A DNA stretch of 26,187 nt from Chloroflexota bacterium (GCA_018725455.1 QLUN01000001.1:1-26187), one strand, 5' to 3'. Positions 12,927 to 25,184 are shown, counted from the stretch's first letter. A program made the numbers and translations. Notes: a model not told the origin generated them from the sequence alone.

Positions 12927-15900
12927 TTAAGCAGCTTTCGCCGCCTGCGGGTCAGCATCATCAATCGCTGCTTTCGCTCCTTCAAAAACACCCAATTCGG
13001 TGTTGATTTTATCTTGGCGAGCCCGAAGCTCTTCCAATCGGCCCATCTGATCAAAGCCCTGATCCATCATAGCTCGAGCCACAGAGAGATCGCGGTTCAT
13101 TGCGTCCAGACGCCGAAGCGTCCGCTCTGACTCTCCTCGAATGTTGCGAATCGTGTCCATGATCGCATCAATAGGCCCGTTGTGGCGGGCAGCTACGCGC
13201 ACGTCCCACGTTGCTTGACCCTTTAGCGAAAGCTCTGCTTCACGGCCAGAGCCATCAATCCACATCTCAAATCCAGCGAAGTTCCCAGCCAAAAAAGCCT
13301 GATTGCCACGGCTGCGAAGCATGAGCGAGAACAATCGGCGTGATGCCTCCTTGCGGTCAGTGAAAACCTCTTCACGGATGACCATCTCGAAGTTCTTGTG
13401 AGATACGTCAACGATGGCCTTCTCGTCCTCGTCCTGTGCCCGAGCAAGCTGGTTGTAGGCGTGAATCCGAGATGGCAGCGTCCGCAGGGCGTAGCGCGCA
13501 TCACCAGTCTGCTTAACCCACTGGCGATGCAGTGCTTCAAGTTTCAGCACATCAGCGTCAACACCGGCCTTTTCAAGAACCAGTGGATTGCCCGACGCGA
13601 GCGCCTTCACCTCGGCGTAGGACAGTGCCGACAACTCAGCATCCTCTGCTGATCGACCGCCCTCACCGCTCATCACCTGGGCGATAAATCGTGCCTTGTT
13701 GTGGAGACATTGCCACATATACGAGTCGAAGGAGCCGCTGGTGACGTACCGATAGATTGTCACCTCTTCGTTCTCGTTCCCTTGGCGCTCTATTCGGCCC
13801 TCCCTTTGTTCGACACAGCTTGGCTTCCAGGGCGCGTCGATATGATGGAGTGCAACAAGCCGCTTCTGGATGTTCGTCCCAACACCCATCTTCTCAGTAG
13901 ATCCGAGGAGGATTCGCGTCTTGCCCGACCGAACGCTAGCAAACAGCTTCTCTTTGGCCGCATCAGTCGAGGCGTCGTGAATAAAAGCAATCTCACTTGG
14001 GGGAATTCCGCGCTTAATCAGCTTCTCCTTCATGTCTCCATAAAGACTCCAAACCCCCGCACCCTTTGGCGTAGACATATCCAGAAACACAGCTTGGGTG
14101 CCCAGATTACTGGTCGTATTGGCATGCACCTCAACCAGCTTGTCAACACAAAGATTGACTTTGCTGCCAGCCTCGTCCTCGCCGCCTACCAATCGCATGT
14201 CCGTAGCGGCACAGCGCCCATCAAATGTGACAGAGAGCATGTTGTCAACATCTGCCTTAACCTTTCCGGCGCGGATAGACTCTGAACGCTCAACCAGTGT
14301 TTGAACGAACGCCTTCAGGGTGGGGCTCCCTTCCGCAACAACTGTAACGCGGTGCGTGATGGGCGTCGGCAGACTCAGCATCTCCTTCGTTTTAATGTCA
14401 GCAACCTCTGAAAACACCGACATCAACTCAGGCAGATTGACAAACTTGCTAAACCTAGCATTAACGCGATAACCGCCGCCATCAGGCCGAAGCTCAACGG
14501 CCTTAACCACTCGACCGAATGCAGATGCCCAGGAGTCGAACATCTCATAACCAATGCGCTGGAGCGTGCTTGGCTGGAGAAAGGTCTGCATCGTCCAAAG
14601 TTCGGCCATACTGTTCGAAATGGGCGTGCCCGTCGCAAACGTAATACCGCACTCATCATTGCGAATGAACGTGATCTCGCGAACCTTGAGCAGCATGTCG
14701 AACGCTCTCTGGCTGTCAGAGTTCGGCAAACCAGCAATCCGAGTCATCCGAGAGAACCGATACAGGTTCTTCGCCATATGGGCTTCATCTACCGAAAGAT
14801 GATCCACCCCCGTTTCCTCCAGAGTGATAAAATCATCCTTACCCCATCCTGTTGCAAGCAATTCCAGTCGATTGTTGAGCCGAGATTTTGCTGACTCAAT
14901 TTCCTTGATTGTCTTTTTATCATTTTCCGATGACATTGCGGCAGTCAAAATCTCAAGCTCATTGTTGATGAAGGCCTTAACTCGATCAGGGCTGGATTGA
15001 ATCCTTCCAAAACTGGAATGCGTCATGATAATTGCATCCCAAGACCAAGCCGTCATCCTAGCCACGAGCGACTTCCTGTTTTCTTTAGTCGCATCGTCCT
15101 TAGAGGCCGCCAGCACCGAGGCTCCGGGATAAGCCCGAAGAAACTCAGCCATAAACTGCTCAAGCATGTGGCTTGGAACCACAATGAGAGGCTTTCGCGC
15201 CTTTCCGGTTCGCCGCATTTCCATTGCAGCACAGATCATGACCAGTGTTTTACCAGCACCAACACAATGCGCAAGAAGCGTGTTGGCCTTGCCAGAGACA
15301 ATGCGCCAGATTGCGTCTTTCTGGTGTTGCCGAAGCTCAAGGCAGTGGCTAAAGCCCGGAAGAACCAACCGACTGCCGTCGATCTTTCGCTCGACGTACC
15401 GATTCATTACTCGGTTATAAATCTCATGAATACGCGCTTCGCGCTTCTCGTCGGCGTAGATCCAGTCACTAAATGCCTCGCGAATGTTTTCTTGGGCCGC
15501 ACAAGCAGCCAGGGTTTCATCCGGGTTTAGCTTGTACGATTTATTCTCATGATCGCGATCGCGTATCTCAGGCTCTTTTTGGTTCAGAGCAAGAACAAAC
15601 AAATCCCCGGTACTTATCCGCGATGTTGAAAACTTGGCGGATGGACTACAATACCCATTCATCGACCAGAGGCTTACCTTTGCATTTAGGCTAACCTCGG
15701 CTTTATGCCCTCCAAGTCGCTCATTTACAAACTGACTCAATATATCACACGGAATCCATGATGCCCCAAGGTTGATTGTAATATCCTTGGGTTTAATGTC
15801 TTCCGGGATAACCCCCTTTAGAGCCTCCACATTGCTCAAAAACGCCGAGCCTGCCGCCGATGCCATCGACAGCTTCGTCTTCACGTCACCAGAGAGGTAA

Positions 15901-17774
15901 AGATCAGCCGACTCCCATAACCCGCTTGATGGGTTACAGTAAGCCAATCCCTCGGCTAATAATGACGCCTCAACATCTTCGACAGACTGTTTAACAAGCC
16001 TAGCAATGAAATAAGGGATAACTCGACCTGTTTGAGCCAAGCATATCTGTAACGCTTCTTGCACAGTTTCAGCATGATCGGGCATGATAACCGCTTTTGC
16101 GGTTCGGCGATAAAACAAATCCGCCTTTGTTGTCTTGCCTGTTTCGCTATCCCACTTCTCTAATGACAGCACCAGTGGAAAATCAGGATCAAGCCGAAGC
16201 GCCTTGACATTCCTCTTGTCGTTAATTGGGCCAAATGACTTTACAAACGCCTGATAAGCCGCACCCATACCAGCACGCAGAATCTCAAGTTTGCTGTCAT
16301 CTTCCTCATAAGCCTGACGCTCAACAAGCTTTCTTGTTGAATCGCGCAATGGAATCATTGAAAGGATTTTTGCTTCGTCTGCCTTGGTGACATGAGCCTC
16401 TACCACTTCATTCCCAGCACTCACCCCCACTCGTCCATTACTCATAACCAAGTACGAACCAGGCTTAATGCGCACCCCTAAAGACTCACGAGCCGGATCA
16501 GGAACAATCACCTCGACCTTTCGCGGCGTGTAGCATGCCGGAACGGTCAGGAGGTCAACCGCAGTAGCGAGCGCTACCCGCCAGTCGCCTTCACAGTGAG
16601 CGATAGAAGACCGCCCGCCGTACTGCCTCGTTACCATCCTTCGCTCACCAATGAATCGCTCATCAGGGAGTGCGGCGGCATTGTAGTTTTTGCCAGAGAA
16701 TTCAAAGCTCGACGCTATCTCGCTCGCCCAATCGCTGCTACTGATCCGAGCCTCATCTTTCCCTCTTTTGCGCAAAATCAAAAAATCGATCGACGCTTCT
16801 GTTCCTGCAAATGCCTTAAAGGACTGACTCGGCAATCGGACGGCATGCACCAGATCCGCATGTGCGCTTAACCATAAACGGGTTGCCGGGTTTGATTTAT
16901 CAAGCGTTCCGCTCGATGTTAGAAAAGCGACCAATCCACCCTCGCGAACCAGCGTCATGGCACGGCCAAAGAAAAAATCATGGATGAGCCACTTGCGGTA
17001 CTCTGATCGCTCGGCAGAAACCACTCCAAAATTTCCGAAAGGAACATTAGAGATGGCTAAATCAAAGCCCCCTTCAGGAAGATCAACCTTCTCAAAGCCG
17101 TCGATGTGAACCTGTGTGTCCGGCTGCGCGTACAGCGCCCGGAGGATGCGGCCCGTGGTCGGATCTTTCTCGATGGCCGTAACGGTCGATGTTGCTACCA
17201 TCTCTTGTGGCATGGTTCCCAGTAGAAGCCCAGTTCCAGCAGAGGGCTCGAGAATCCGCCCCCCATTGAAACCTGTCTGCTTGATCCATTCCCACATGGC
17301 CTTGCACACCTCAATCGGTGTAAAAAACGCCGTGTTCACCGAATGGCGCGCCGATTCAATGTCCTCCCCATCAGCAATCAGTTTTTGCAACTCATCGCGC
17401 TCATTGCGAAGAGGTGCCCAGGTGGTGTCAAATATCTTCGGAACTGCGCCCCATCCAGAGTAGCGATTGAGCGCAGCGCGCTCTTCTTCAGTCGGATCGC
17501 GATGCTCTGCCTCGATCTGATTGAGAATCCGAAGAGCATTCAAATTTCGCTCAATGCGATCAGCTTGGCCATGAGCAGATTCAACGCTCTGAATCAAAGG
17601 CCACTGATTTGTAACCTTTGGCGTTCTGGAGGCTGCCGGGAAGGGCAAAACCGTTGCGGATGCCTCCCTCATGGATATGCTTGTCGCCTGCGGAGGGATC
17701 GCCTCAAGGGGATTCTCCCCAGGCCCAAATCCTGGCAGGTACATCATCACTTCGGCCAATGCCTTGAGTTTCAT
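12927..17774 (-). CDS. DarB-like N6-adenine DNA methyltransferase + SNF2/SF2 helicase (1615 aa)
   Basis: MTase motifs ILEPSAGTG and ISNVPFG; helicase AHCVGAGKT, VDEAH, ATGTPISNS, STEKMGVGTNIQ, QREGRIERQGN. Confidence 0.93.
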   Translation of the reverse strand: MKLKALAEVMMYLPGFGPGENPLEAIPPQATSISMREASATVLPFPAASRTPKVTNQWPLIQSVESAHGQADRIERNLNALRILNQIEAEHRDPTEEERAALNRYSGWGAVPKIFDTTWAPLRNERDELQKLIADGEDIESARHSVNTAFFTPIEVCKAMWEWIKQTGFNGGRILEPSAGTGLLLGTMPQEMVATSTVTAIEKDPTTGRILRALYAQPDTQVHIDGFEKVDLPEGGFDLAISNVPFGNFGVVSAERSEYRKWLIHDFFFGRAMTLVREGGLVAFLTSSGTLDKSNPATRLWLSAHADLVHAVRLPSQSFKAFAGTEASIDFLILRKRGKDEARISSSDWASEIASSFEFSGKNYNAAALPDERFIGERRMVTRQYGGRSSIAHCEGDWRVALATAVDLLTVPACYTPRKVEVIVPDPARESLGVRIKPGSYLVMSNGRVGVSAGNEVVEAHVTKADEAKILSMIPLRDSTRKLVERQAYEEDDSKLEILRAGMGAAYQAFVKSFGPINDKRNVKALRLDPDFPLVLSLEKWDSETGKTTKADLFYRRTAKAVIMPDHAETVQEALQICLAQTGRVIPYFIARLVKQSVEDVEASLLAEGLAYCNPSSGLWESADLYLSGDVKTKLSMASAAGSAFLSNVEALKGVIPEDIKPKDITINLGASWIPCDILSQFVNERLGGHKAEVSLNAKVSLWSMNGYCSPSAKFSTSRISTGDLFVLALNQKEPEIRDRDHENKSYKLNPDETLAACAAQENIREAFSDWIYADEKREARIHEIYNRVMNRYVERKIDGSRLVLPGFSHCLELRQHQKDAIWRIVSGKANTLLAHCVGAGKTLVMICAAMEMRRTGKARKPLIVVPSHMLEQFMAEFLRAYPGASVLAASKDDATKENRKSLVARMTAWSWDAIIMTHSSFGRIQSSPDRVKAFINNELEILTAAMSSENDKKTIKEIESAKSRLNNRLELLATGWGKDDFITLEETGVDHLSVDEAHMAKNLYRFSRMTRIAGLPNSDSQRAFDMLLKVREITFIRNDECGITFATGTPISNSMAELWTMQTFLQPSTLQRIGYEMFDSWASAFGRVVKAVELRPDGGGYRVNARFSKFVNLPELMSVFSEVADIKTKEMLSLPTPITHRVTVVAEGSPTLKAFVQTLVERSESIRAGKVKADVDNMLSVTFDGRCAATDMRLVGGEDEAGSKVNLCVDKLVEVHANTTSNLGTQAVFLDMSTPKGAGVWSLYGDMKEKLIKRGIPPSEIAFIHDASTDAAKEKLFASVRSGKTRILLGSTEKMGVGTNIQKRLVALHHIDAPWKPSCVEQREGRIERQGNENEEVTIYRYVTSGSFDSYMWQCLHNKARFIAQVMSGEGGRSAEDAELSALSYAEVKALASGNPLVLEKAGVDADVLKLEALHRQWVKQTGDARYALRTLPSRIHAYNQLARAQDEDEKAIVDVSHKNFEMVIREEVFTDRKEASRRLFSLMLRSRGNQAFLAGNFAGFEMWIDGSGREAELSLKGQATWDVRVAARHNGPIDAIMDTIRNIRGESERTLRRLDAMNRDLSVARAMMDQGFDQMGRLEELRARQDKINTELGVFEGAKAAIDDADPQAAKAA

Positions 17775-18391: not shown

Positions 18392-18607
18392 TTACTCGGC
18401 CATTTCGGCCTCGAACTGCATTAAAAGTAGTCTTTCGGAGCGGATTGATTCCTTTCTCGTCTCCTCTTTTAAGAGGAGCTTTACAGCAGCATAACGCGGA
18501 TCATTCCGCGGGATGCTGTTCAACTTGTTTGCCATCCTCATTAGGATGGATGTGTTTCTTTCGGCTCTACGCTCTTCTGCGTCGAGCAACTTCAAATCAA
18601 CAGTCAT
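18392..18607 (-). CDS. Hypothetical charged helical protein (71 aa)
   Basis: AGGAG RBS before ATG 18607; the longer track ORF runs through the promoter and repeat. Confidence 0.65.
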   Translation of the reverse strand: MTVDLKLLDAEERRAERNTSILMRMANKLNSIPRNDPRYAAVKLLLKEETRKESIRSERLLLMQFEAEMAE

Positions 18608-18652
18608 TTCCTGTACTCCTGTCAGTACATTTCCTCGAAGTGAGGCAGCAGC

Positions 18653-18682
18653 ATTGCCCGCTCCTCTAGTGTGGGTTGTTGC
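18653..18682 (-). promoter_or_regulatory. GCAACA-N18-GGCAAT element, copy 7
   Basis: 70 nt from ATG 18607; hairpin 18633-18645. Confidence 0.75.
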
Positions 18683-18691
18683 GTGCTCTTG

Positions 18692-18727
18692 TTGCGAGTG
18701 TTGCGAGTGCTGCGAGTGTTGCGAGTG
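18692..18727. repeat. 4 x 9-bp tandem repeat (TTGCGAGTG; third unit CTGCGAGTG)
   Basis: Read directly; unit junctions regenerate TGTTGC (= GCAACA). Confidence 0.9.
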
Positions 18728-18775
18728 CAGAACTTGCAACAAGATGACCACCCCACCCTATTCTGGATGATGAAC

Positions 18776-18809
18776 AAAAACCCCGACCAGAGAGCAAGTC
18801 TGGTCGGGG
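18776..18809 (-). terminator. Intrinsic terminator
   Basis: CCCCGACCAGA-gagcaag-TCTGGTCGGGG; A5 on the left. Confidence 0.8.
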
Positions 18810-18819
18810 ATTGGTTTTG

Positions 18820-20007
18820 TTAAGCCGCCTGCTTCTGGGAAGCGATGCGGCGAGCCTTGACGGTGAGTTGTTCGTGGATCCGTATCAGGATTGACGGATC
18901 AGCAGCTTCAAAGCTACTTGTTCCGTGATACGCCAATACGTTGGCCGGATCCGTCTTAGTTCTATCTATCAGACCGCTGATCTCTTCAATCAACCGATCG
19001 CGAGCATCCTTGTCTCCCGGTGAATGAGCCTCGCTCGAGGCACCAGATGCCTCGGGCGCTGGAGTCTCCTTTGGAGTCTCCTTTGGAACTTCCTTGTCGA
19101 TCTGTTGCATCGCTGCCAACTCGTCCATTGATGCTTTGGCGTAAATGGACAATCCGTACCCGGTACAATGGGCTATGGCCTTCGCCAGGCAGCGCATGAC
19201 TGCTGTGTTCCACATGGCTGCCGTGGGGTTAAGGCACGGCTGGTTGTGTAGGATCACTTTCTTATTTGCCTTGCTGGTGATCTCCTTTGACTCCGTGATG
19301 GCAAGAGTTTCCTCGTGCTCAATACCCTTGTAAGCCACCTTGACAGTAACCAGGTACCCTCCCGGAACCCGGAGGTAGGGCTGAACAGAAGCCTCACCAT
19401 TTTCATTGGAAGTGTCAAATTCGACCACTTGCCAATGGAAGTTCGGATCTGTGATCCGGGCAGCGGCAAGAGCAGAAGGCCACTCTAGATAAGGGCGGCG
19501 CTCTGCCATCCCCACTCGGGGCTCAACGATTGAGAGATCTGTTTCTGGTGTAACACCAACCTCGTTCACAAAATCAACGCCGTTGGTGAAAACGGAATTT
19601 CTACCGCTCTTCAGGTGTACACCAAGGCCGATGCCAAGGGCCATTGAAATGCTCTTTCTTTTGGTGGTTGTAATCCCGTCCGCGATGTCCCGGCTATCAA
19701 GACGATCAACAGGAATGGGCTGATTCTTGTTGTCGAGAATCACGGAAAACGACCGACAAGGCTTTTCACCGAATCCTTTCGTATCTACGGCAATTACCGC
19801 CCCTCCGAATACCTCTCGGTACGGCAGATCATCCTTGTATCGGACAACCGCCTGTTTTGGTCGGTTGGCTAGAATGATGATTCTGGAAGTCGGAACGTAG
19901 GTTAGTGGAATCTTGTTCCCACTTTTTTTGTCCTCAATCTCAAGGACAAATGAAAAAGGCGTTACATCGACGCATGCAGCGTCGAAAAACGATTTATGTG
20001 CTTTCAT
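18820..20007 (-). CDS. Sak3-like (DUF1071) single-strand annealing protein with two tandem domains (395 aa)
   Basis: Second domain ends NTAVMRCLAKAIAHCTGYGLSIYA (Sak3 signature); first ends KRKSISMALGIGLGVH; GGAG RBS before ATG 20007. Confidence 0.8.
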   Translation of the reverse strand: MKAHKSFFDAACVDVTPFSFVLEIEDKKSGNKIPLTYVPTSRIIILANRPKQAVVRYKDDLPYREVFGGAVIAVDTKGFGEKPCRSFSVILDNKNQPIPVDRLDSRDIADGITTTKRKSISMALGIGLGVHLKSGRNSVFTNGVDFVNEVGVTPETDLSIVEPRVGMAERRPYLEWPSALAAARITDPNFHWQVVEFDTSNENGEASVQPYLRVPGGYLVTVKVAYKGIEHEETLAITESKEITSKANKKVILHNQPCLNPTAAMWNTAVMRCLAKAIAHCTGYGLSIYAKASMDELAAMQQIDKEVPKETPKETPAPEASGASSEAHSPGDKDARDRLIEEISGLIDRTKTDPANVLAYHGTSSFEAADPSILIRIHEQLTVKARRIASQKQAA

Positions 20008-20043
20008 CTGCAACTCCATTAAGCCGCAGGACGCGGCAGGAAT

Positions 20044-20073
20044 GTTGCTAAAGCTTGAGCTTGCATCTGTTGC
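20044..20073 (-). promoter_or_regulatory. GCAACA-N18-AGCAAC element, copy 8
   Basis: 61 nt from ATG 20007; hairpin 20023-20037. Confidence 0.75.
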
Positions 20074-20096
20074 GTGCGTGGAGTTATTTTACAAAC

Positions 20097-20744
20097 TCAT
20101 TCGCAGGCAACACCGTCCCTGTCGCGATCCATTGAAGCACGGTACTCCGGCGAGCCCAGTTGAGCCGGAGCCCTCCCTGCCCGACGCAGGTCATCACACG
20201 TCATGACCCCAGGGTCATTAGGCCTTCGATTGGATAATTCCACGCCTTCAGCGCTGCTACGCCCGCGATTGGCTGATCGAAAGTCCCACGGCGCTACGAA
20301 CTCGCCCTGCCAAACACCTCGTCGCTCTCTTCGAGCTTCCGCAGCGCCTGCAAGGTGCTTTCTGCCTCCGAACTGCACATAGGGTAGAGCCCATCCGTTT
20401 CTAATCATCCAAGCGTTGACGCTCACTTGGCCCATGTAGCACTCGCCGATTGCTCGCTTGAATCGATCACGAGCGGCCACCTCGCATCGAACGTTTTGGC
20501 TGCCAATGAAATCTGACAAAGCTAGTGCCGCTTGCTGACCACAGCGATATTCGCGGCCGCCAGAATCACTGCACGTTTGCGACGACTCAGGCGCGTCTAT
20601 CGCGCTTAGCCGCACCCTCTCAGAGCGAATTTCGATGGTGTCGCCATCAATCACTGAAGCACGCCCGATGAGGGTCTGGCCCTCGGATAACACAGGAAAA
20701 GCTGCAATGGCCGCAGCAAGAGCAACGCAAGAACGGTAACGCAT
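20097..20744 (-). CDS. Secreted thermonuclease (SNase-like) with a C-terminal Excalibur Ca-binding domain (215 aa)
   Basis: Signal peptide; VIDGDTI, VRLSAIDAPE, DRFKR; C-terminal CDDLR...MDRDRDGVACE. Confidence 0.9.
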   Translation of the reverse strand: MRYRSCVALAAAIAAFPVLSEGQTLIGRASVIDGDTIEIRSERVRLSAIDAPESSQTCSDSGGREYRCGQQAALALSDFIGSQNVRCEVAARDRFKRAIGECYMGQVSVNAWMIRNGWALPYVQFGGRKHLAGAAEARRERRGVWQGEFVAPWDFRSANRGRSSAEGVELSNRRPNDPGVMTCDDLRRAGRAPAQLGSPEYRASMDRDRDGVACE

Positions 20745-20780
20745 CGCACCCCCCCTTTTTTTGCCCTCAAAGCAACAGTG

Positions 20781-21098
20781 CTAGACAACAGGCCCACCCA
20801 TGCCAAGGCTGCGCATCATAGCCTCGGAGGCTTCTAGGCAATCATTGCACCAGGGCTCGAATAGATTGGGGCCAACCTCAACGCGAACCGTTGACGGCTT
20901 GCTCATACAGCACTGGCACAATCCCTTACCCACCGGCTTTGGCGTCCCTAACGGCATGATGTCAACACCACACGTCTTGCAGGGCAATATAAAGGTGTTG
21001 AACTCCAGCTTGCTGCGTCGAGAGAGTGGCGGCGCTAAAAGATGCCCGCAAGAACCGCAAGCAGACTTCGGCCCTGGGAAGTTAATGATGTTGCTCAT
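20781..21098 (-). CDS. Cys-rich putative zinc-binding protein (105 aa)
   Basis: CGSC, CKTC, CQCC and CNDC motifs. Confidence 0.65.
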   Translation of the reverse strand: MSNIINFPGPKSACGSCGHLLAPPLSRRSKLEFNTFILPCKTCGVDIMPLGTPKPVGKGLCQCCMSKPSTVRVEVGPNLFEPWCNDCLEASEAMMRSLGMGGPVV

Positions 21099-21242
21099 GA
21101 GCTACTCACTTGTGTTGCTTCCGATGTGTGCATGGATCAAGCATAGCCCTGTCATCGCGTGAGACAAAAACACCAGTGTTTACTTGGGCCTCGAGGCACC
21201 AATTGGCGGCACGGAGCCTGCTTGCCAAGCAACCCCAAAAGG

Positions 21243-21275
21243 AAAAAAGCCCCGACAAATACCGTGTCGGGGCTT
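21243..21275 (-). terminator. Intrinsic terminator
   Basis: AAGCCCCGACA-aataccg-TGTCGGGGCTT; A6 on the left. Confidence 0.85.
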
Positions 21276-21280
21276 GCTTA

Positions 21281-21496
21281 TCATCGTCTGAAGTTTTTGG
21301 CCTTGGCCTTGAAGGCCGAATAGGCGACCCAGCCCCCTATGGCCGAGCTTCCGACTAACAGGCCCAGCGTTACTGCTGGAACCAGAATTTCCATCATAAA
21401 TGCAGGAAAAAACTGGAACCCGAAGACAATGATTCCAATGCAAATGAAAAGGCCTATGAAAGCTCCCGCCCCGACCCTTGCTTCCTGCTCATTCAT
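21281..21496 (-). CDS. Small membrane protein with 2 predicted TM segments (71 aa)
   Basis: GGAG RBS; start overlaps the upstream stop; two hydrophobic stretches and a basic tail. Confidence 0.7.
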   Translation of the reverse strand: MNEQEARVGAGAFIGLFICIGIIVFGFQFFPAFMMEILVPAVTLGLLVGSSAIGGWVAYSAFKAKAKNFRR

Positions 21497-21674
21497 TGAA
21501 TTCTCCAGTGAAGGAGAGGCCCATAAATGCTCCGAAAGTTCCGAAGCGGATTCCAAGGGCACCTGAAAGGGCTGGGTTAAGCCCTTGTCTGCCATCGGCC
21601 TCCAGTGAAGCCAAGTCGGCGGCCTCAGCCGCCTGTTTTGCGGCTTCAGCCGCAAAAATGAGATCAAAAAGCAT
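21489..21674 (-). CDS. Hypothetical protein (61 aa)
   Basis: CAGGAG RBS before ATG 21674. Confidence 0.6.
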   Translation of the reverse strand: MLFDLIFAAEAAKQAAEAADLASLEADGRQGLNPALSGALGIRFGTFGAFMGLSFTGEFNE

Positions 21675-21733
21675 TCTGTACTCCTGCCCCGGTTGGTTGT
21701 GTGGGCGAATGCCCGCTGAGTTGGGGCAAAGGA

Positions 21734-21764
21734 GTTGATGTTTGGATTTCGCAAGCACTGTTGC
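21734..21764 (-). promoter_or_regulatory. GCAACA-N19-ATCAAC element, copy 9
   Basis: Spacer one base longer; 85 nt from ATG 21674; back-to-back with copy 10. Confidence 0.55.
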
Positions 21765-21778
21765 GAGCATGCCGGCAT

Positions 21779-21808
21779 GCAACAGTCATCGCCCTTTGTT
21801 CATGCAAT
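21779..21808 (+). promoter_or_regulatory. GCAACA-N18-TGCAAT element, copy 10
   Basis: 63 nt from ATG 21847; hairpin 21814-21830. Confidence 0.75.
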
Positions 21809-21846
21809 TCCGCTGTCGCAATCCGCGACAAGTAAAGAGAAAGAGG

Positions 21847-22035
21847 ATGTTGTACCCATGCGCCATTAAGCAATACGGCTTCTATGAAGGCATCGGTCAT
21901 ACGACCAGCCTCACGGGAGCAAAGGCAATACTGATTCAGTTTTGTGAAAGATTCAAACAACCCGAGGTCAGTCGAAAACTGATTCGTCTTGATGGCGAAA
22001 TGGTTGAGGCTTTCGTATTTGAGTCCGATCAATAA
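21847..22035 (+). CDS. Hypothetical protein (62 aa; MLYPCAIKQYGFYEG...)
   Basis: 3' part of track ORF 21742..22035; AAGAGG RBS; motif, hairpin and terminator all in register. Confidence 0.65.
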   Translation: MLYPCAIKQYGFYEGIGHTTSLTGAKAILIQFCERFKQPEVSRKLIRLDGEMVEAFVFESDQ

Positions 22036-22038
22036 AGC

Positions 22039-22074
22039 AACCCCCCTTTCTCTAGTGATAGAGATTGGGGGGTT
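22039..22074. terminator. Hairpin/terminator between convergent genes
   Basis: AACCCCCC-tt-TCTCTA-gtga-TAGAGA-tt-GGGGGGTT. Confidence 0.7.
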
Positions 22075-22079
22075 ATTGG

Positions 22080-22529
22080 TTATTTGAAAGAGAGTGCTGA
22101 AAGCGCCCTTTCTATGTAACGGGCGATGTCCGTGCATTTTAGATACCACAAGATGTGGCCTCTAAACCCGGCATAACTGTCGGGCTTCATGAGTAACCGG
22201 AGGCGCTTAACCGCCCTCAGGTGTTCCTTGGCCTCGGCCAAGTCAAACCTCCTGGCATCCCCATTGCCACCAACCACCAAAACGATAGTGGGCAGATGCG
22301 GAATTATCTTCACCTGAATAATTCTTGTGTTGCCTGGCGGCCGCATCACCGCGCCAACTTGTGCAGGCGTCTTGCCTGCCACTCCGGGGTGGAACATGAA
22401 AACATCCCCCTCCCCCCCGGCATCTTCGATCAGCCTCTGGGCCAGCCTTTGCTGACCAGCGGTGGCCTTGGCCATTTCGCCCTTGAACGAATCGCCGTAT
22501 AGTTCGGCGTCTAGTAAAATGGGTGTCAT
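22080..22529 (-). CDS. Hypothetical protein (149 aa)
   Basis: AAGGAG RBS before ATG 22529. Confidence 0.72.
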   Translation of the reverse strand: MTPILLDAELYGDSFKGEMAKATAGQQRLAQRLIEDAGGEGDVFMFHPGVAGKTPAQVGAVMRPPGNTRIIQVKIIPHLPTIVLVVGGNGDARRFDLAEAKEHLRAVKRLRLLMKPDSYAGFRGHILWYLKCTDIARYIERALSALSFK

Positions 22530-22571
22530 CAGAACTCCTTGATTTATTTCTGGGCTGCTCCCAGTCAACGA

Positions 22572-22601
22572 AATGCCCTGCTATAAGCAGGGCATTGTTG
22601 C
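22572..22601 (-). promoter_or_regulatory. GCAACA-N18-GGCATT element, copy 11
   Basis: 67 nt from ATG 22529; hairpin 22550-22564; the spacer is itself palindromic (AATGCCCTGCT-ata-AGCAGGGCATT). Confidence 0.75.
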
Positions 22602-22610
22602 AAGCGCGTC

Positions 22611-22853
22611 CTACCGACGAAACGGCGACCTGCTGGCGGAAAGCAGCTTCAGAATTGTTGCGCCGTGCTCGGCCAGATAGCGTCCTGAGCGGATCTCGGC
22701 AACATCTGCGGCAGACGTTCGAAAGCCGCTCAAAGCAAACTCAGCGCGAGCGCGATTGATCGCATCCATTGCTGAAATCAAGCCGGCCTCGACCGCTGAA
22801 GAGATCGGCGGGTCATCTGCCGCCTTCTGGCATGCTTGAATTGGTTCATTCAT
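22611..22853 (-). CDS. Hypothetical protein (80 aa)
   Basis: ORF track; GAGAGG RBS. Confidence 0.68.
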   Translation of the reverse strand: MNEPIQACQKAADDPPISSAVEAGLISAMDAINRARAEFALSGFRTSAADVAEIRSGRYLAEHGATILKLLSASRSPFRR

Positions 22854-22893
22854 ACGATCCTCTCTTTTGTGCGTCGTGGTTTACGACACCCCC

Positions 22894-22923
22894 ATTGCTC
22901 CCTCTCGCCTAGCTAGGTGTTGC
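22894..22923 (-). promoter_or_regulatory. GCAACA-N18-AGCAAT element, copy 12
   Basis: 65 nt from ATG 22853; hairpin 22873-22887. Confidence 0.78.
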
Positions 22924-22931
22924 AGCAATTG

Positions 22932-22964
22932 AAAAAAAACACCCGCTGATTGCTCAGCGGGTGT
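22932..22964 (-). terminator. Intrinsic terminator
   Basis: ACACCCGCTGA-ttgc-TCAGCGGGTGT; A8 on the left. Confidence 0.88.
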
Positions 22965-22971
22965 GGTGAAA

Positions 22972-23967
22972 TTAGGCAACCAATGTGATCGCCCAACTTT
23001 TGGTACCCTCCTTGCGGAAGGACTCCATCTTTTCCTCAGAGAGTGTCACTCGTGCGATCAAAGACGGGTCTTTGATGCCCGACTCATTGAGTACGGCCAG
23101 CACTTCAGCCTGAAGCGCCTTGACTGCCTCAGCCATGTCCACCGCGCCCTTTCTGGCACTCTCTGTTGCCCGAACCTTATCGATCTCAACCTTCGGCTCG
23201 CCCGATTTTTTTGCATAGCCGATAATCAAATCTCGGCTTGCATTCATCACATCCGTCTCTCTTTCAATTATTAGCTTGCTGGAGCGGTAGGCTTCTGCCG
23301 CATTCAGCACTTCCACCGGGATTTTTCGACCGCACTTCACCTCATCCCAGAAGCGAAGATGTAGGGGGATGAGTCCCTCGGCCATACGCCGAAGCGCGTC
23401 GTTTCGAGCACTAATAACCGCGAGAACCGTCTCGCCCTCGCGATGGTTTACGAAGTGAATCTCCCGAGACAAATCCCACGCTTCCGGTCGCCCCCATGCG
23501 GTAATTGCCTGATGAACAATCTGCGGGAAGTAGTAAGGCACAACGCGCCCTTCTTTTGCCATCCGGTGAACATCGGCATTGGCGACCTTGATCTCCAAGA
23601 GAACATCAAGCTCCAGATCAGCGCCGTCGAAAGACGATCGAATGATCGGAAACTCATCCATCTCACCAAAAATTGGTGAAGTGAGGATTCCGGTGGTTTT
23701 TTCGTGCCATTGCTTGATGATCGGCTCAAGTTCCTTGCCTCGCCGCATTGCGAAACTCTCCTTGAACTCCCTCTTCTCCCCTTGCTTCTCCCGAACCAGC
23801 GCTGGGTAGTCCCGCTGCCAACTCGCAGCATCTGAGGATGAAAGCAGCCCTCCTTGAAAAGCTATCGTTGCCGCATCGGAGCCGCCGATACCACCGGATC
23901 GCCAGTGGTGCCAACGGGCACTGTCAGGCGAGCCTGACTCCGTCAATTCAAAATGAACGTGCTTCAT
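22972..23967 (-). CDS. YqaJ-like (lambda-exonuclease family) recombination exonuclease (331 aa)
   Basis: W...RSGGIGGSDAA; MRRGKELEP; RSSFDG; LLEIK; YYFPQIVHQ; AGGAGG RBS before ATG 23967. Confidence 0.92.
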   Translation of the reverse strand: MKHVHFELTESGSPDSARWHHWRSGGIGGSDAATIAFQGGLLSSSDAASWQRDYPALVREKQGEKREFKESFAMRRGKELEPIIKQWHEKTTGILTSPIFGEMDEFPIIRSSFDGADLELDVLLEIKVANADVHRMAKEGRVVPYYFPQIVHQAITAWGRPEAWDLSREIHFVNHREGETVLAVISARNDALRRMAEGLIPLHLRFWDEVKCGRKIPVEVLNAAEAYRSSKLIIERETDVMNASRDLIIGYAKKSGEPKVEIDKVRATESARKGAVDMAEAVKALQAEVLAVLNESGIKDPSLIARVTLSEEKMESFRKEGTKSWAITLVA

Positions 23968-24003
23968 TAAGCCTCCTATCCCCGGCAAAGCGCCGGTAGG
24001 GGG

Positions 24004-24033
24004 GTTGCTTAGAGCGTCAAAAAATAGTGTTGC
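24004..24033 (-). promoter_or_regulatory. GCAACA-N18-AGCAAC element, copy 13
   Basis: 61 nt from ATG 23967; hairpin 23982-23996. Confidence 0.78.
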
Positions 24034-24046
24034 GTGATGAAACGAC

Positions 24047-24076
24047 GCAACAACTTACGCATAGATTCAGATCAAC
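24047..24076 (+). promoter_or_regulatory. GCAACA-N18-ATCAAC element, copy 14
   Basis: 64 nt from ATG 24116; hairpin 24082-24101. Confidence 0.78.
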
Positions 24077-24115
24077 CCTTCTTGCCGCACTGACGCGGTA
24101 ATGTGGGAGTTTCAG

Positions 24116-24625
24116 ATGGAATCAAAGCATGGTTCCGCGCTTTCGGGTGGTGTCTGGGAGCTTGCGGAAGACGAGGATAGGTCAATTCCAAAAAGTCGAT
24201 CCGAAGCAATAAGGGAAGCGTGCGAGGATAGAGAGCCAGAAACTCGGCTTCTTGCCGAGATCATTGCTTTAGCAGTGGAGGACTTAGAGGTAATCGAAGC
24301 AACAAAAGGTTTTGCAATCGAAGTTAGTGACGACCTGCGGTTAAGCGCAGTGAGTTCAGCAACCTTCTTTATAAAGGGCGTTGCCGGAGAGTATATGAAG
24401 CTGATTGGCATCGAATCAGTACTGCCACAGCTTAAGGCAAGGTCAATTGGTGTCCTTGGTGCGCTTGGCCCCGGATGGTCGCATCTCTCAAAGCTAAAAG
24501 ACGATAAGGCGAATCAGCGGATTTTCAAAGCGCTTGGTATTGCTAGGCGGCCCATTGATCGCATGGATGCGCCAGCTAGCGCAAGATCAGGAATGAGAAA
24601 CAAGCTGGTTGTCAGTCTTGTATAA
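24116..24625 (+). CDS. Hypothetical protein (169 aa)
   Basis: GGGAG RBS before ATG 24116; helical core PETRLLAEIIALAVEDL...SATFF. Confidence 0.72.
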   Translation: MESKHGSALSGGVWELAEDEDRSIPKSRSEAIREACEDREPETRLLAEIIALAVEDLEVIEATKGFAIEVSDDLRLSAVSSATFFIKGVAGEYMKLIGIESVLPQLKARSIGVLGALGPGWSHLSKLKDDKANQRIFKALGIARRPIDRMDAPASARSGMRNKLVVSLV

Positions 24626-24646
24626 AGCCCCTAATCTGTATCGTAT

Positions 24647-24720
24647 AAAAACCCTGCCCTGAAAGCCAGAGCAGGGTTTTCTTTTGCAAAAAAAAAGAAA
24701 CCCCGCATTTGCGGGGTTTC
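24647..24720. terminator. Two adjacent terminators, one for each convergent gene
   Basis: AAAACCCTGC...GCAGGGTTTT with a following T-tract (+); GAAACCCCGC-attt-GCGGGGTTTC with A9 on the left (-). Confidence 0.88.
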
Positions 24721-24760
24721 TGAGTGCTTCAAAAGGTTCGCAAGAACGAATCAGTACGGA

Positions 24761-25117
24761 TCAGTACGGATCAGACTCATCACTCTCAAGCTCTTCCGTG
24801 CCTGAAGACTTCGGTGAGAGATAGGCGATCGAAGATGCAACCACCTTAACGGAGGTTCTCTCCTTGCCCTCTTTGTCGGTATATTGTTCTACAACCAAGT
24901 GGCCTGAAACACCGAGTCGATCACCCTTCTTGATGGCTGCCAATCGCTCACCCTGCCCACCCCAAGCTTCGACGTTGAGCCAGAGCGGCTCCCTATCCTT
25001 GCCATTACTCACGGCAACGCGCACTTTTGACACCGCCTTGTCGACGCCAACCCTTGAACTGGTGGCGTCGCCACCTGCATTTCCATAAAAACTGTAGTTG
25101 TTGTTGAAACGTGACAT
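24761..25117 (-). CDS. ssb: Single-stranded DNA-binding protein (118 aa)
   Basis: GNAGGD, WLNVEAWG, KKGD..GVSGHL....YTDKEG; acidic tail ESDESDPY; GGAG RBS before ATG 25117. Confidence 0.92.
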   Translation of the reverse strand: MSRFNNNYSFYGNAGGDATSSRVGVDKAVSKVRVAVSNGKDREPLWLNVEAWGGQGERLAAIKKGDRLGVSGHLVVEQYTDKEGKERTSVKVVASSIAYLSPKSSGTEELESDESDPY

Positions 25118-25154
25118 TTCTTGCTCCGGTGAGATCCGAAATTGGATCAGGGTA

Positions 25155-25184
25155 TTTGCAGCTTGAAAAAAATAACCGTGTTGC
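25155..25184 (-). promoter_or_regulatory. GCAACA-N18-TGCAAA element, copy 15
   Basis: 62 nt from ATG 25117; hairpin 25133-25148. Confidence 0.72.

Follow-up and report, generated by a model that had tools for sequence, protein, structure and literature searches.

A Sak3-type annealing protein with two cores in one chain, encoded with an exonuclease and a single-stranded DNA-binding protein on a plasmid-like contig

Can one polypeptide carry two copies of an annealing core, and does such a protein work with an exonuclease and a single-stranded DNA-binding protein (SSB) encoded a few kilobases away? These questions are raised by a gene on the minus strand of a Chloroflexota bacterium sequence, GCA_018725455.1 QLUN01000001.1:1-26187. 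This 26,187-nt stretch, hereafter the window, is the entire contig C1 of a metagenome-assembled genome (MAG) that is 54% complete, and matches in sequencing runs identify groundwater as the source of the contig. Annealases of the Rad52 superfamily are viewed as assemblies of identical single-core chains, in rings or filaments, and models of annealing depend centrally on ring size and on the DNA footprint of each protomer. A preliminary description, made from the sequence alone, had proposed that the gene encodes a Sak3 (DUF1071) annealase with two aligned halves, and that this protein belongs to a dispersed, Red-like recombination kit. Residue numbers below follow the 399-amino-acid (aa) mechanical open reading frame (ORF) at 18820-20019 (minus strand). 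The actual start is the ATG at 20007, which is preceded by GGAG at 6 nt and gives a protein of 395 aa, and the database representative P0001 is likewise 395 aa long.

We examined the two halves of the annealase by sequence, profile and structure comparisons. Every string quoted for the halves in the preliminary description is found in the 399-aa ORF. Comparing the two halves with BLASTP returned nothing significant (best E 1.6), so the similarity of the halves is invisible to this method and profile methods are required. Using hhalign, the N-half and C-half profiles match each other at 99.6% (E 3.9e-24, 101 columns). This match is well beyond chance, and the profile-profile alignment pairs LPYREVFGGAVIAV with QPYLRVPGGYLVTV and the RKSISMALGIGLGVH helix with RCLAKAIAHCTGYGLSIY, precisely the pairs that had been proposed. 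PF06378 matches the window's protein at residues 174-301 (54.7 bits, E 1.1e-14, cut-off 22.3 bits), and when the N halves are scanned alone, 34 of 38 family members also match PF06378, the best with an E of 9.5e-16. The window's own N half has no Pfam match, and no NCBIfam model matched either the N half or the full protein. The N-half profile matches the chains of 80alpha Sak, 8pq8 and 8qe9 (E 2.5e-13), and in the homologue alignment the motif sequence of the N half is the same as that of the C half.

Predicted structures lead to the same result. The AlphaFold2 model of the full-length annealase has a predicted local distance difference test score (pLDDT) of 90.2 and a predicted template modelling score (pTM) of 0.83, and the N half modelled alone reaches a pLDDT of 91.4. 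In an exhaustive search of 48,161 chains, 80alpha Sak is the top match of the N core (Z 12.6), followed by lesser fold matches to RAD52 (Z 7.3), Mgm101 (Z 7.2) and Redbeta (Z 5.1). The C core superposes on 80alpha Sak with a Z of 11.1 and a root-mean-square deviation of 2.3 A over 130 residues. Since hhalign, the PF06378 scans, the N-profile search and the AlphaFold2 folds all agree, we take the repeat to be real. Both cores show the Rad52-like succession of beta-hairpin, helix, beta-sheet and long helix. The N half is a DUF1071/Sak core, and the matching profiles and the two Sak-like folds give good support to a Sak3 core repeated as a pseudo-dimer in a single chain. That the N half matches DUF1071 thus holds at the level of the family and of structure, whereas the window's own copy lacks a Pfam match and has lost near-invariant residues, as described below.

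Single-core Sak proteins of 225-232 aa align in one stretch to the C core, the linker and the C-terminal domain, so the architecture reads as a usual Gram-negative Sak that has gained a further core at its N-terminal end. The PKET-repeat linker and helical C-terminal domain that had been read from the sequence are both present: PKETPKET occupies residues 315-322 in a low-confidence linker, where pLDDT falls below 50 at residues 325-332, and three helices are predicted at 334-354, 358-364 and 375-398. By analogy with the C-terminal domain of 80alpha Sak (PMC11846896), we infer that this domain binds partners.

How widespread is the tandem form? Full-length homologues number 63, with lengths of 306-501 aa. 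Searched with a profile, a set of 1.84 billion representatives yielded 3324 matches at E<=0.001 and 111 at E<=1e-30; nearly all of these 111 span both cores and have lengths of 300-620 aa. At 50% identity the tandem form makes up about 100 clusters. Named hosts are mostly Proteobacteria (Lysobacter, Rhodanobacter, Allochromatium, Acidovorax, Novimethylophilus, Hydrogenophilales, Rhodocyclaceae and Mariprofundaceae), and two more matches, on contigs labelled Anaerolinea and Streptomyces, may be contamination. Proteins of 195-232 aa that match the N or the C part were considered as halves of split genes and rejected, as they match both halves and are ordinary single-core Saks. An AlphaFold Database cluster of two-domain proteins has the same shape (template modelling scores 0.71/0.72) and is named only 'DUF1071 domain-containing protein', which is how most of the family is annotated. 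We found no paper on a tandem-core Sak in the searchable literature, and large surveys of the superfamily make no mention of the form (PMC11783212, PMC8093625). The architecture is therefore present in databases under a generic name and undescribed as far as the searchable literature shows.

The history of the two cores was addressed with a quick maximum-likelihood search over 141 columns that included N cores, C cores and single-core relatives, a tree whose deep nodes are insecure. The N, C and single-core groups each fall on one side of a branch, with Shimodaira-Hasegawa-like approximate likelihood ratio test (SH-aLRT) values of 99, 94 and 88, respectively. The N and C subtrees are partly parallel, with P0049/P0050, P0051/P0052 and the trio of relatives that includes the window's protein recurring in both. 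This pattern fits one old duplication that was inherited vertically within the gene.

We then considered the two genes proposed as partners. The YqaJ and SSB genes are 3 and 4.7 kb from the annealase gene, within the distance of 3-5 kb that had been claimed. YqaJ matches PF09588 (53 bits, above the cut-off), phrog_434, a RecE-like exonuclease family, and TIGR03033, and a D...ExK motif (FDGAD...LLEIK) can be read in its sequence. SSB matches PF00436 (53.9 bits), phrog_44 and TIGR00621, and consists of an oligonucleotide/oligosaccharide-binding (OB) fold followed by an acidic tail that ends in ESDESDPY, the final residue being aromatic. Ribosome-binding sites of the GGAG type set the starts of all three genes, at ATG 20007 (annealase), ATG 23967 (YqaJ) and ATG 25117 (SSB). 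The 2.95-kb gap between annealase and YqaJ contains at least three ORFs and terminator-like hairpins, an arrangement that is neither adjacent nor co-transcribed, and the strong terminator-like hairpins that follow annealase, YqaJ and SSB indicate separate transcription units.

The three genes share an upstream element, which we picked out by inspecting upstream regions. It is exact before the annealase and YqaJ genes and carries two mismatches before SSB, so a common upstream element, as had been noted in the preliminary description, is indeed found. Using the pattern GCAACA-N18-RKCAAY with at most one mismatch, we counted 14 copies between 420 and 24076 of the window on both strands, where 1.18 would be expected; 100 shuffles all gave fewer than 14. 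At two mismatches 14 chance matches are expected in the window; the SSB copy is counted on two grounds only, its position 37 nt before the ATG and its counterpart in L001, a related contig described below, where a one-mismatch copy stands 42 nt before ssb. L001 has eight copies against 0.37 expected; all share the strand of the gene they precede, and most stand 36-46 nt ahead of a start codon. The element behaves like a promoter or leader signal, as judged from its placement, and to our knowledge its pattern matches no recognised promoter class. Generic repeat and sigma-70 scans did not recover it. In each of the three leaders (19990-20046, 23964-24006 and 25114-25157, minus strand) a short GC hairpin is also predicted, placed after the second box and ahead of the ribosome-binding site, and these hairpins are no better than those of shuffled controls (z -0.4 to -1.5). 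Two small features of these sequences were seen in addition. The SSB and YqaJ leaders have two GGA motifs each, one of them within the Shine-Dalgarno sequence. At 18677-18725, a 9-nt tandem repeat present three times encodes an HSQ repeat in the mechanical ORF 18392-18751 and overlaps extra GCAACA boxes; the gene of this ORF probably has its start further downstream, near 18610 and past the element copy at 18653-18682.

The trio is conserved in one related plasmid. P0003, which is 56% identical to the window's annealase, is encoded on the 53-kb contig L001, which carries RepC. Its gene order is that of the window: SSB, a divergent 168-aa ORF, YqaJ, small ORFs, an SNase, Sak and a 1616-aa helicase, with the orthology of each gene supported by phmmer. 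Among eleven tandem-Sak loci, L001 is the only one with the full trio. Of the others, L009, from a Lysobacter MAG, has a YqaJ homologue 1.3 kb downstream of its tandem Sak, and L010, from Allochromatium, has an SSB directly downstream. The tandem-Sak loci inspected look like plasmids or integrative and conjugative elements (ICEs) and thereby take SSAP (single-strand annealing protein) biology beyond phages, to proteobacterial plasmids and ICEs. Gram-negative duf1071 genes have been found to lie outside prophage contexts (PMC8093625). In the TraG_N contig L008 (11401-17788), the tandem Sak is followed by DUF3150, a CbbQ/AAA_5 ATPase and DUF5983, unlike the window's neighbourhood.

Taken together, we consider it likely that the window encodes a Sak3/DUF1071-type annealing protein of the Rad52 superfamily, with an old internal duplication of its core and one C-terminal domain, which would give a plasmid-like element RecA-independent annealing and repair together with YqaJ and SSB. 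If the protein behaves like 80alpha Sak and Rad52, its chains would assemble into rings or arcs, the N and C cores taking the places of neighbouring protomers, with half as many chains and one C-terminal domain for every two cores. Single-stranded DNA (ssDNA) would be bound in the outer groove, in this lineage mainly by the intact C cores. YqaJ, as a 5'-3' exonuclease, would resect double-strand ends, and the element's SSB would coat the resulting ssDNA. The C-terminal domain may recruit SSB through its acidic tail, after which the annealase would displace SSB and anneal complementary strands. Such a system would probably serve in double-strand break repair, in rescue after restriction or entry into a new host, and in recombination between related elements, the last of which has been shown for the Bet/Exo pair of SXT-type ICEs. 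The closest studied protein, 80alpha Sak, assembles into 17- and 18-mer rings and anneals oligonucleotides. It binds ssDNA and not double-stranded DNA, and it cooperates with its SSB through the C-terminal regions of both proteins (PMC11846896).

Several findings weigh against this reading. The annealase, YqaJ and SSB genes form no operon. The shared element precedes most cassettes, including the 1615-aa helicase gene and several small ORFs, and so is a region-wide signal that is not specific to the three recombination genes. Neither YqaJ nor SSB is found in the other eight tandem-Sak loci (L006-L008 and L011-L015) within flanks of at most 10 kb, where we see RepC, TraG_N, RecD2-like helicases, methyltransferases and many small ORFs; since distant relatives mostly lack both genes nearby, the annealase may usually act alone or with host factors. 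The alignment with 80alpha Sak covers the core only and thus does not establish homology of the C-terminal domains. The window's N core, without its Arg and other conserved residues, may bind no DNA. Finally, short contigs from two groundwater metatranscriptome libraries are identical to stretches of the annealase, YqaJ and SSB genes and of the divergent 174-aa ORF. The same patchy pattern is seen in a DNA run of the same study and sample, so these contigs are no evidence of transcription; they probably come from a related plasmid and are possibly DNA carry-over.

We therefore weighed an account in which the duplication is real and the trio is no Red-like kit. The three would instead be independent establishment or maintenance genes, with SSB coating incoming ssDNA, YqaJ acting alone and the annealase acting with host factors, and a conserved backbone and a common promoter-like element would make them appear linked. 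The broad distribution of the element, the separate terminator of each gene and the absence of YqaJ and SSB from eight of eleven loci are all in line with it, and because the whole backbone is common to L001, including the 1616-aa helicase and small ORFs, the shared gene order may reflect ancestry alone. However, known recombination modules of phages and ICEs are built from just these parts, an SSAP, a 5'-3' exonuclease family member and an SSB. YqaJ or SSB recurs near the tandem Sak in two otherwise different loci, L009 and L010, and the cooperation of a Sak C-terminal domain with an SSB tail has experimental precedent (PMC11846896). On balance we regard this account as unlikely. The association of Sak with partner genes recurs and appears not to be obligatory, and the dispersed kit seems to be a trait of the window's plasmid lineage. 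The Red-like kit of the preliminary description is plausible and partly supported: SSAP, YqaJ and SSB occur together here and in L001, and the other loci have one partner or neither within flanks of at most 10 kb. The proposed co-regulation in trans is similarly qualified: the element is common to all three genes, yet most other cassettes have it upstream as well, and any promoter role is putative. As for the statement that Sak3 normally lies beside an exonuclease and an SSB, what is documented is a duf1071-ssb module of Firmicutes phages, without an exonuclease (PMC8093625).

We next turned to the state of the two cores in the window's protein, counting conservation over 147 family members of at least 300 aa. 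In the C core, W180, R276 and G287 are invariant (147 of 147), and K280 and Y293 are kept in 138 and 145 sequences, respectively. At position 118 of the N core, the start of the long helix, 143 of 147 have Arg; the exceptions are one gapped sequence and three proteins with Thr, namely the window's and its nearest relatives P0002 and P0003. At near-invariant positions the window's N core has the substitutions W44T, P93V, R118T and Y135H and keeps K122 and G129. W44 is lost across the window's clade, and P93 and Y135 are lost in the window alone. The R-x3-K helix and the G-x-G-L-x-x-Y motif are consequently present in the C core (R276, K280, G287 and Y293) and broken in the N core (T118 and H135). 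The window's branch is three times longer for the N core than for the C core (0.74 vs 0.23). Degeneration of the N copy is confined to the window's lineage. In Rad52, basic residues of the corresponding helix line the ssDNA groove, and by this analogy we infer that the window's N core has kept its fold and that its DNA binding is weakened or lost.

These substitutions allow a further account, in which the N core of this lineage is a non-catalytic structural module that alters assembly, for instance by capping rings into small oligomers or by spacing the active C cores. The protein would then mainly protect ssDNA or displace SSB at plasmid entry rather than act as a classical annealase. The loss of the N-core Arg and W44 only in the window's clade, with P93 and Y135 gone in the window alone, the tripled N branch and the plasmid-like context of the gene would agree with such a role. 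The C core, however, retains all of its conserved residues, the N-core fold is confidently kept (pLDDT 91), and other family members keep both motifs, an indication that both cores served the ancestral function. We find this account quite improbable. That the two-domain protein is an artefact of annotation or assembly, with two adjacent single-domain sak genes read as one, is a general possibility to which the abundance of single-domain Sak proteins of 195-260 aa lends a little colour, but it is extremely improbable and is ruled out by an ORF that is uninterrupted in the window, the same architecture in about 100 clusters and in 63 homologues that come from many separate assemblies, a conserved inter-domain segment and a confident single-chain model (pTM 0.83).

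A bolder proposal can be put forward tentatively, as something possible that we do not hold to be probable: these would be the first single-chain, two-core annealases of the Rad52 superfamily. They would build pseudo-dimer rings with an even number of cores and half the number of C-terminal domains, one core would be free to specialise, every second DNA site would be off in the window's lineage, and the role would lie in the establishment or repair of plasmids and ICEs instead of in phages. A natural covalent pseudo-dimer would offer a way into the questions of ring size and footprint, as it would force neighbouring pairs and permit asymmetric mutation of one core, and in this lineage a degenerate core already stands beside an intact one. 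The SSAP, exonuclease and SSB of one small element are also a candidate recombineering toolkit for non-model Gram-negative hosts.

We compared the window's proteins with known systems. Both cores share with 80alpha Sak (PF06378; PDB 8pq8, 8qe9) the fold and the helix with its Gly-rich motif, and the proteins have in common the succession of core, flexible linker and helical C-terminal domain, as well as an acidic-tail SSB on the same element. In contrast, 80alpha Sak is a 206-aa, one-core chain in 17-/18-mer rings from a Firmicutes phage, whereas the window's protein has two cores, with one C-terminal domain for the two, and is plasmid-borne in a Gram-negative setting with a non-adjacent ssb. 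Sak3 of lactococcal phage p2 and the duf1071-ssb modules of Firmicutes phages have the same Pfam family and an SSB partner, but they are single-domain and phage-borne, with ssb adjoining (PMC8093625).

Outside the Sak proteins, lambda Red (Exo/Beta), RecET and the SXT/R391 Bet/Exo system resemble the window in pairing an SSAP with a 5'-3' exonuclease of the YqaJ/lambda-exo family on a mobile element, and SXT/R391 Bet/Exo is a precedent for such a system on a conjugative element. These systems differ in that their SSAPs belong to the Redbeta/RecT family instead of Sak3 and in that their genes form one operon, while those of the window are in units 3-5 kb apart. No Gam equivalent was identified alongside the window's annealase and YqaJ. 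Human RAD52 and yeast Mgm101 rings have the superfamily fold (N core Z 7.3 and 7.2, respectively) but are homo-oligomers of single-core chains. The features of the locus are collected in Table 1.

Table 1. Annealase, partner genes and associated signals in the window.
Feature	Position	Strand	Evidence
Tandem-Sak annealase gene, 395 aa	18820..20007	-	ORF; PF06378; homologues; AlphaFold2 model; ribosome-binding site
N-terminal Sak/Rad52-like core, residues about 20-137, degenerate in this lineage	19609..19962	-	hhalign; fold match; substitutions
Inter-domain segment, conserved, residues 138-168, short helix 147-154 in model	19516..19608	-	Family alignment consensus and AlphaFold2
C-terminal Sak core, residues 169-304, canonical	19108..19515	-	PF06378; 80alpha Sak superposition
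End of long helix, then low-complexity linker with two PKET repeats, residues 305-333	19021..19107	-	Sequence; pLDDT
Helical C-terminal domain, residues 334-399, candidate partner-binding module	18823..19020	-	AlphaFold2 helices
Intrinsic-terminator-like hairpin, 11 bp stem and T run, just past annealase stop	18781..18809	-	Terminator scan
Exact element copy GCAACA-N18-AGCAAC, 36 nt before annealase ATG	20044..20073	-	Pattern scan
YqaJ/lambda-exonuclease-family gene, 331 aa	22972..23967	-	PF09588; phrog_434; TIGR03033
Terminator-like hairpin past YqaJ	22939..22964	-	Terminator scan
Exact element copy, 36 nt before YqaJ ATG	24004..24033	-	Pattern scan
Exact element copy facing divergent 174-aa ORF	24047..24076	+	Pattern scan
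Short SSB gene, 118 aa	24761..25117	-	PF00436; phrog_44; TIGR00621
Terminator-like hairpin past SSB	24696..24721	-	Terminator scan
Imperfect element copy, 2 mismatches, 37 nt before SSB ATG	25155..25184	-	Pattern scan; L001 counterpart

The window's contig looks like a plasmid. Its minus strand between 17.7 and 25.3 kb is a series of short gene cassettes, and KfrA, an integrase and a Toprim/AAA_25 protein provide a mobile context, while RepC, TraG_N and RecD2-like genes accompany the tandem-Sak genes of relatives. Using blastn, the 6.4-kb region gave no match among PLSDB plasmids, the annealase protein was not found in the 40 related genomes searched, and a circularity check found no terminal overlap between the contig ends.

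Other genes of the region were noted beside the trio. An SNase-plus-Excalibur nuclease is encoded at 20097-20744 (minus strand), directly upstream of the annealase gene, and is kept in L001. A Sec-type signal peptide can be read from its sequence; since this putative signal peptide makes the protein probably exported, the SNase was left out of the kit and is probably a plasmid 'nuc'-type nuclease with no part in recombination. At 12927-17774 (minus strand) lies the gene of the 1615-aa SNF2/ResIII helicase, which has a methyltransferase-like region at its N terminus. It has a very high-scoring counterpart in L001, adjoining the same cassettes, and weak NCBIfam matches to DISARM DrmD and MADS2, which suggests a plasmid anti-restriction or defence-type giant protein. 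Between ssb and yqaJ, the divergent 174-aa ORF at 24101-24625 (plus strand) matches no family and has a counterpart at E 5e-64 in the 168-aa divergent ORF of L001. In a DNA contig of another groundwater sample (run X4), unrelated sequence adjoins 23265-23533 of the window, and 31 nt match 19609-19639; the contig probably comes from a related plasmid with a different arrangement, or else the match arose by chance or from a repeat.

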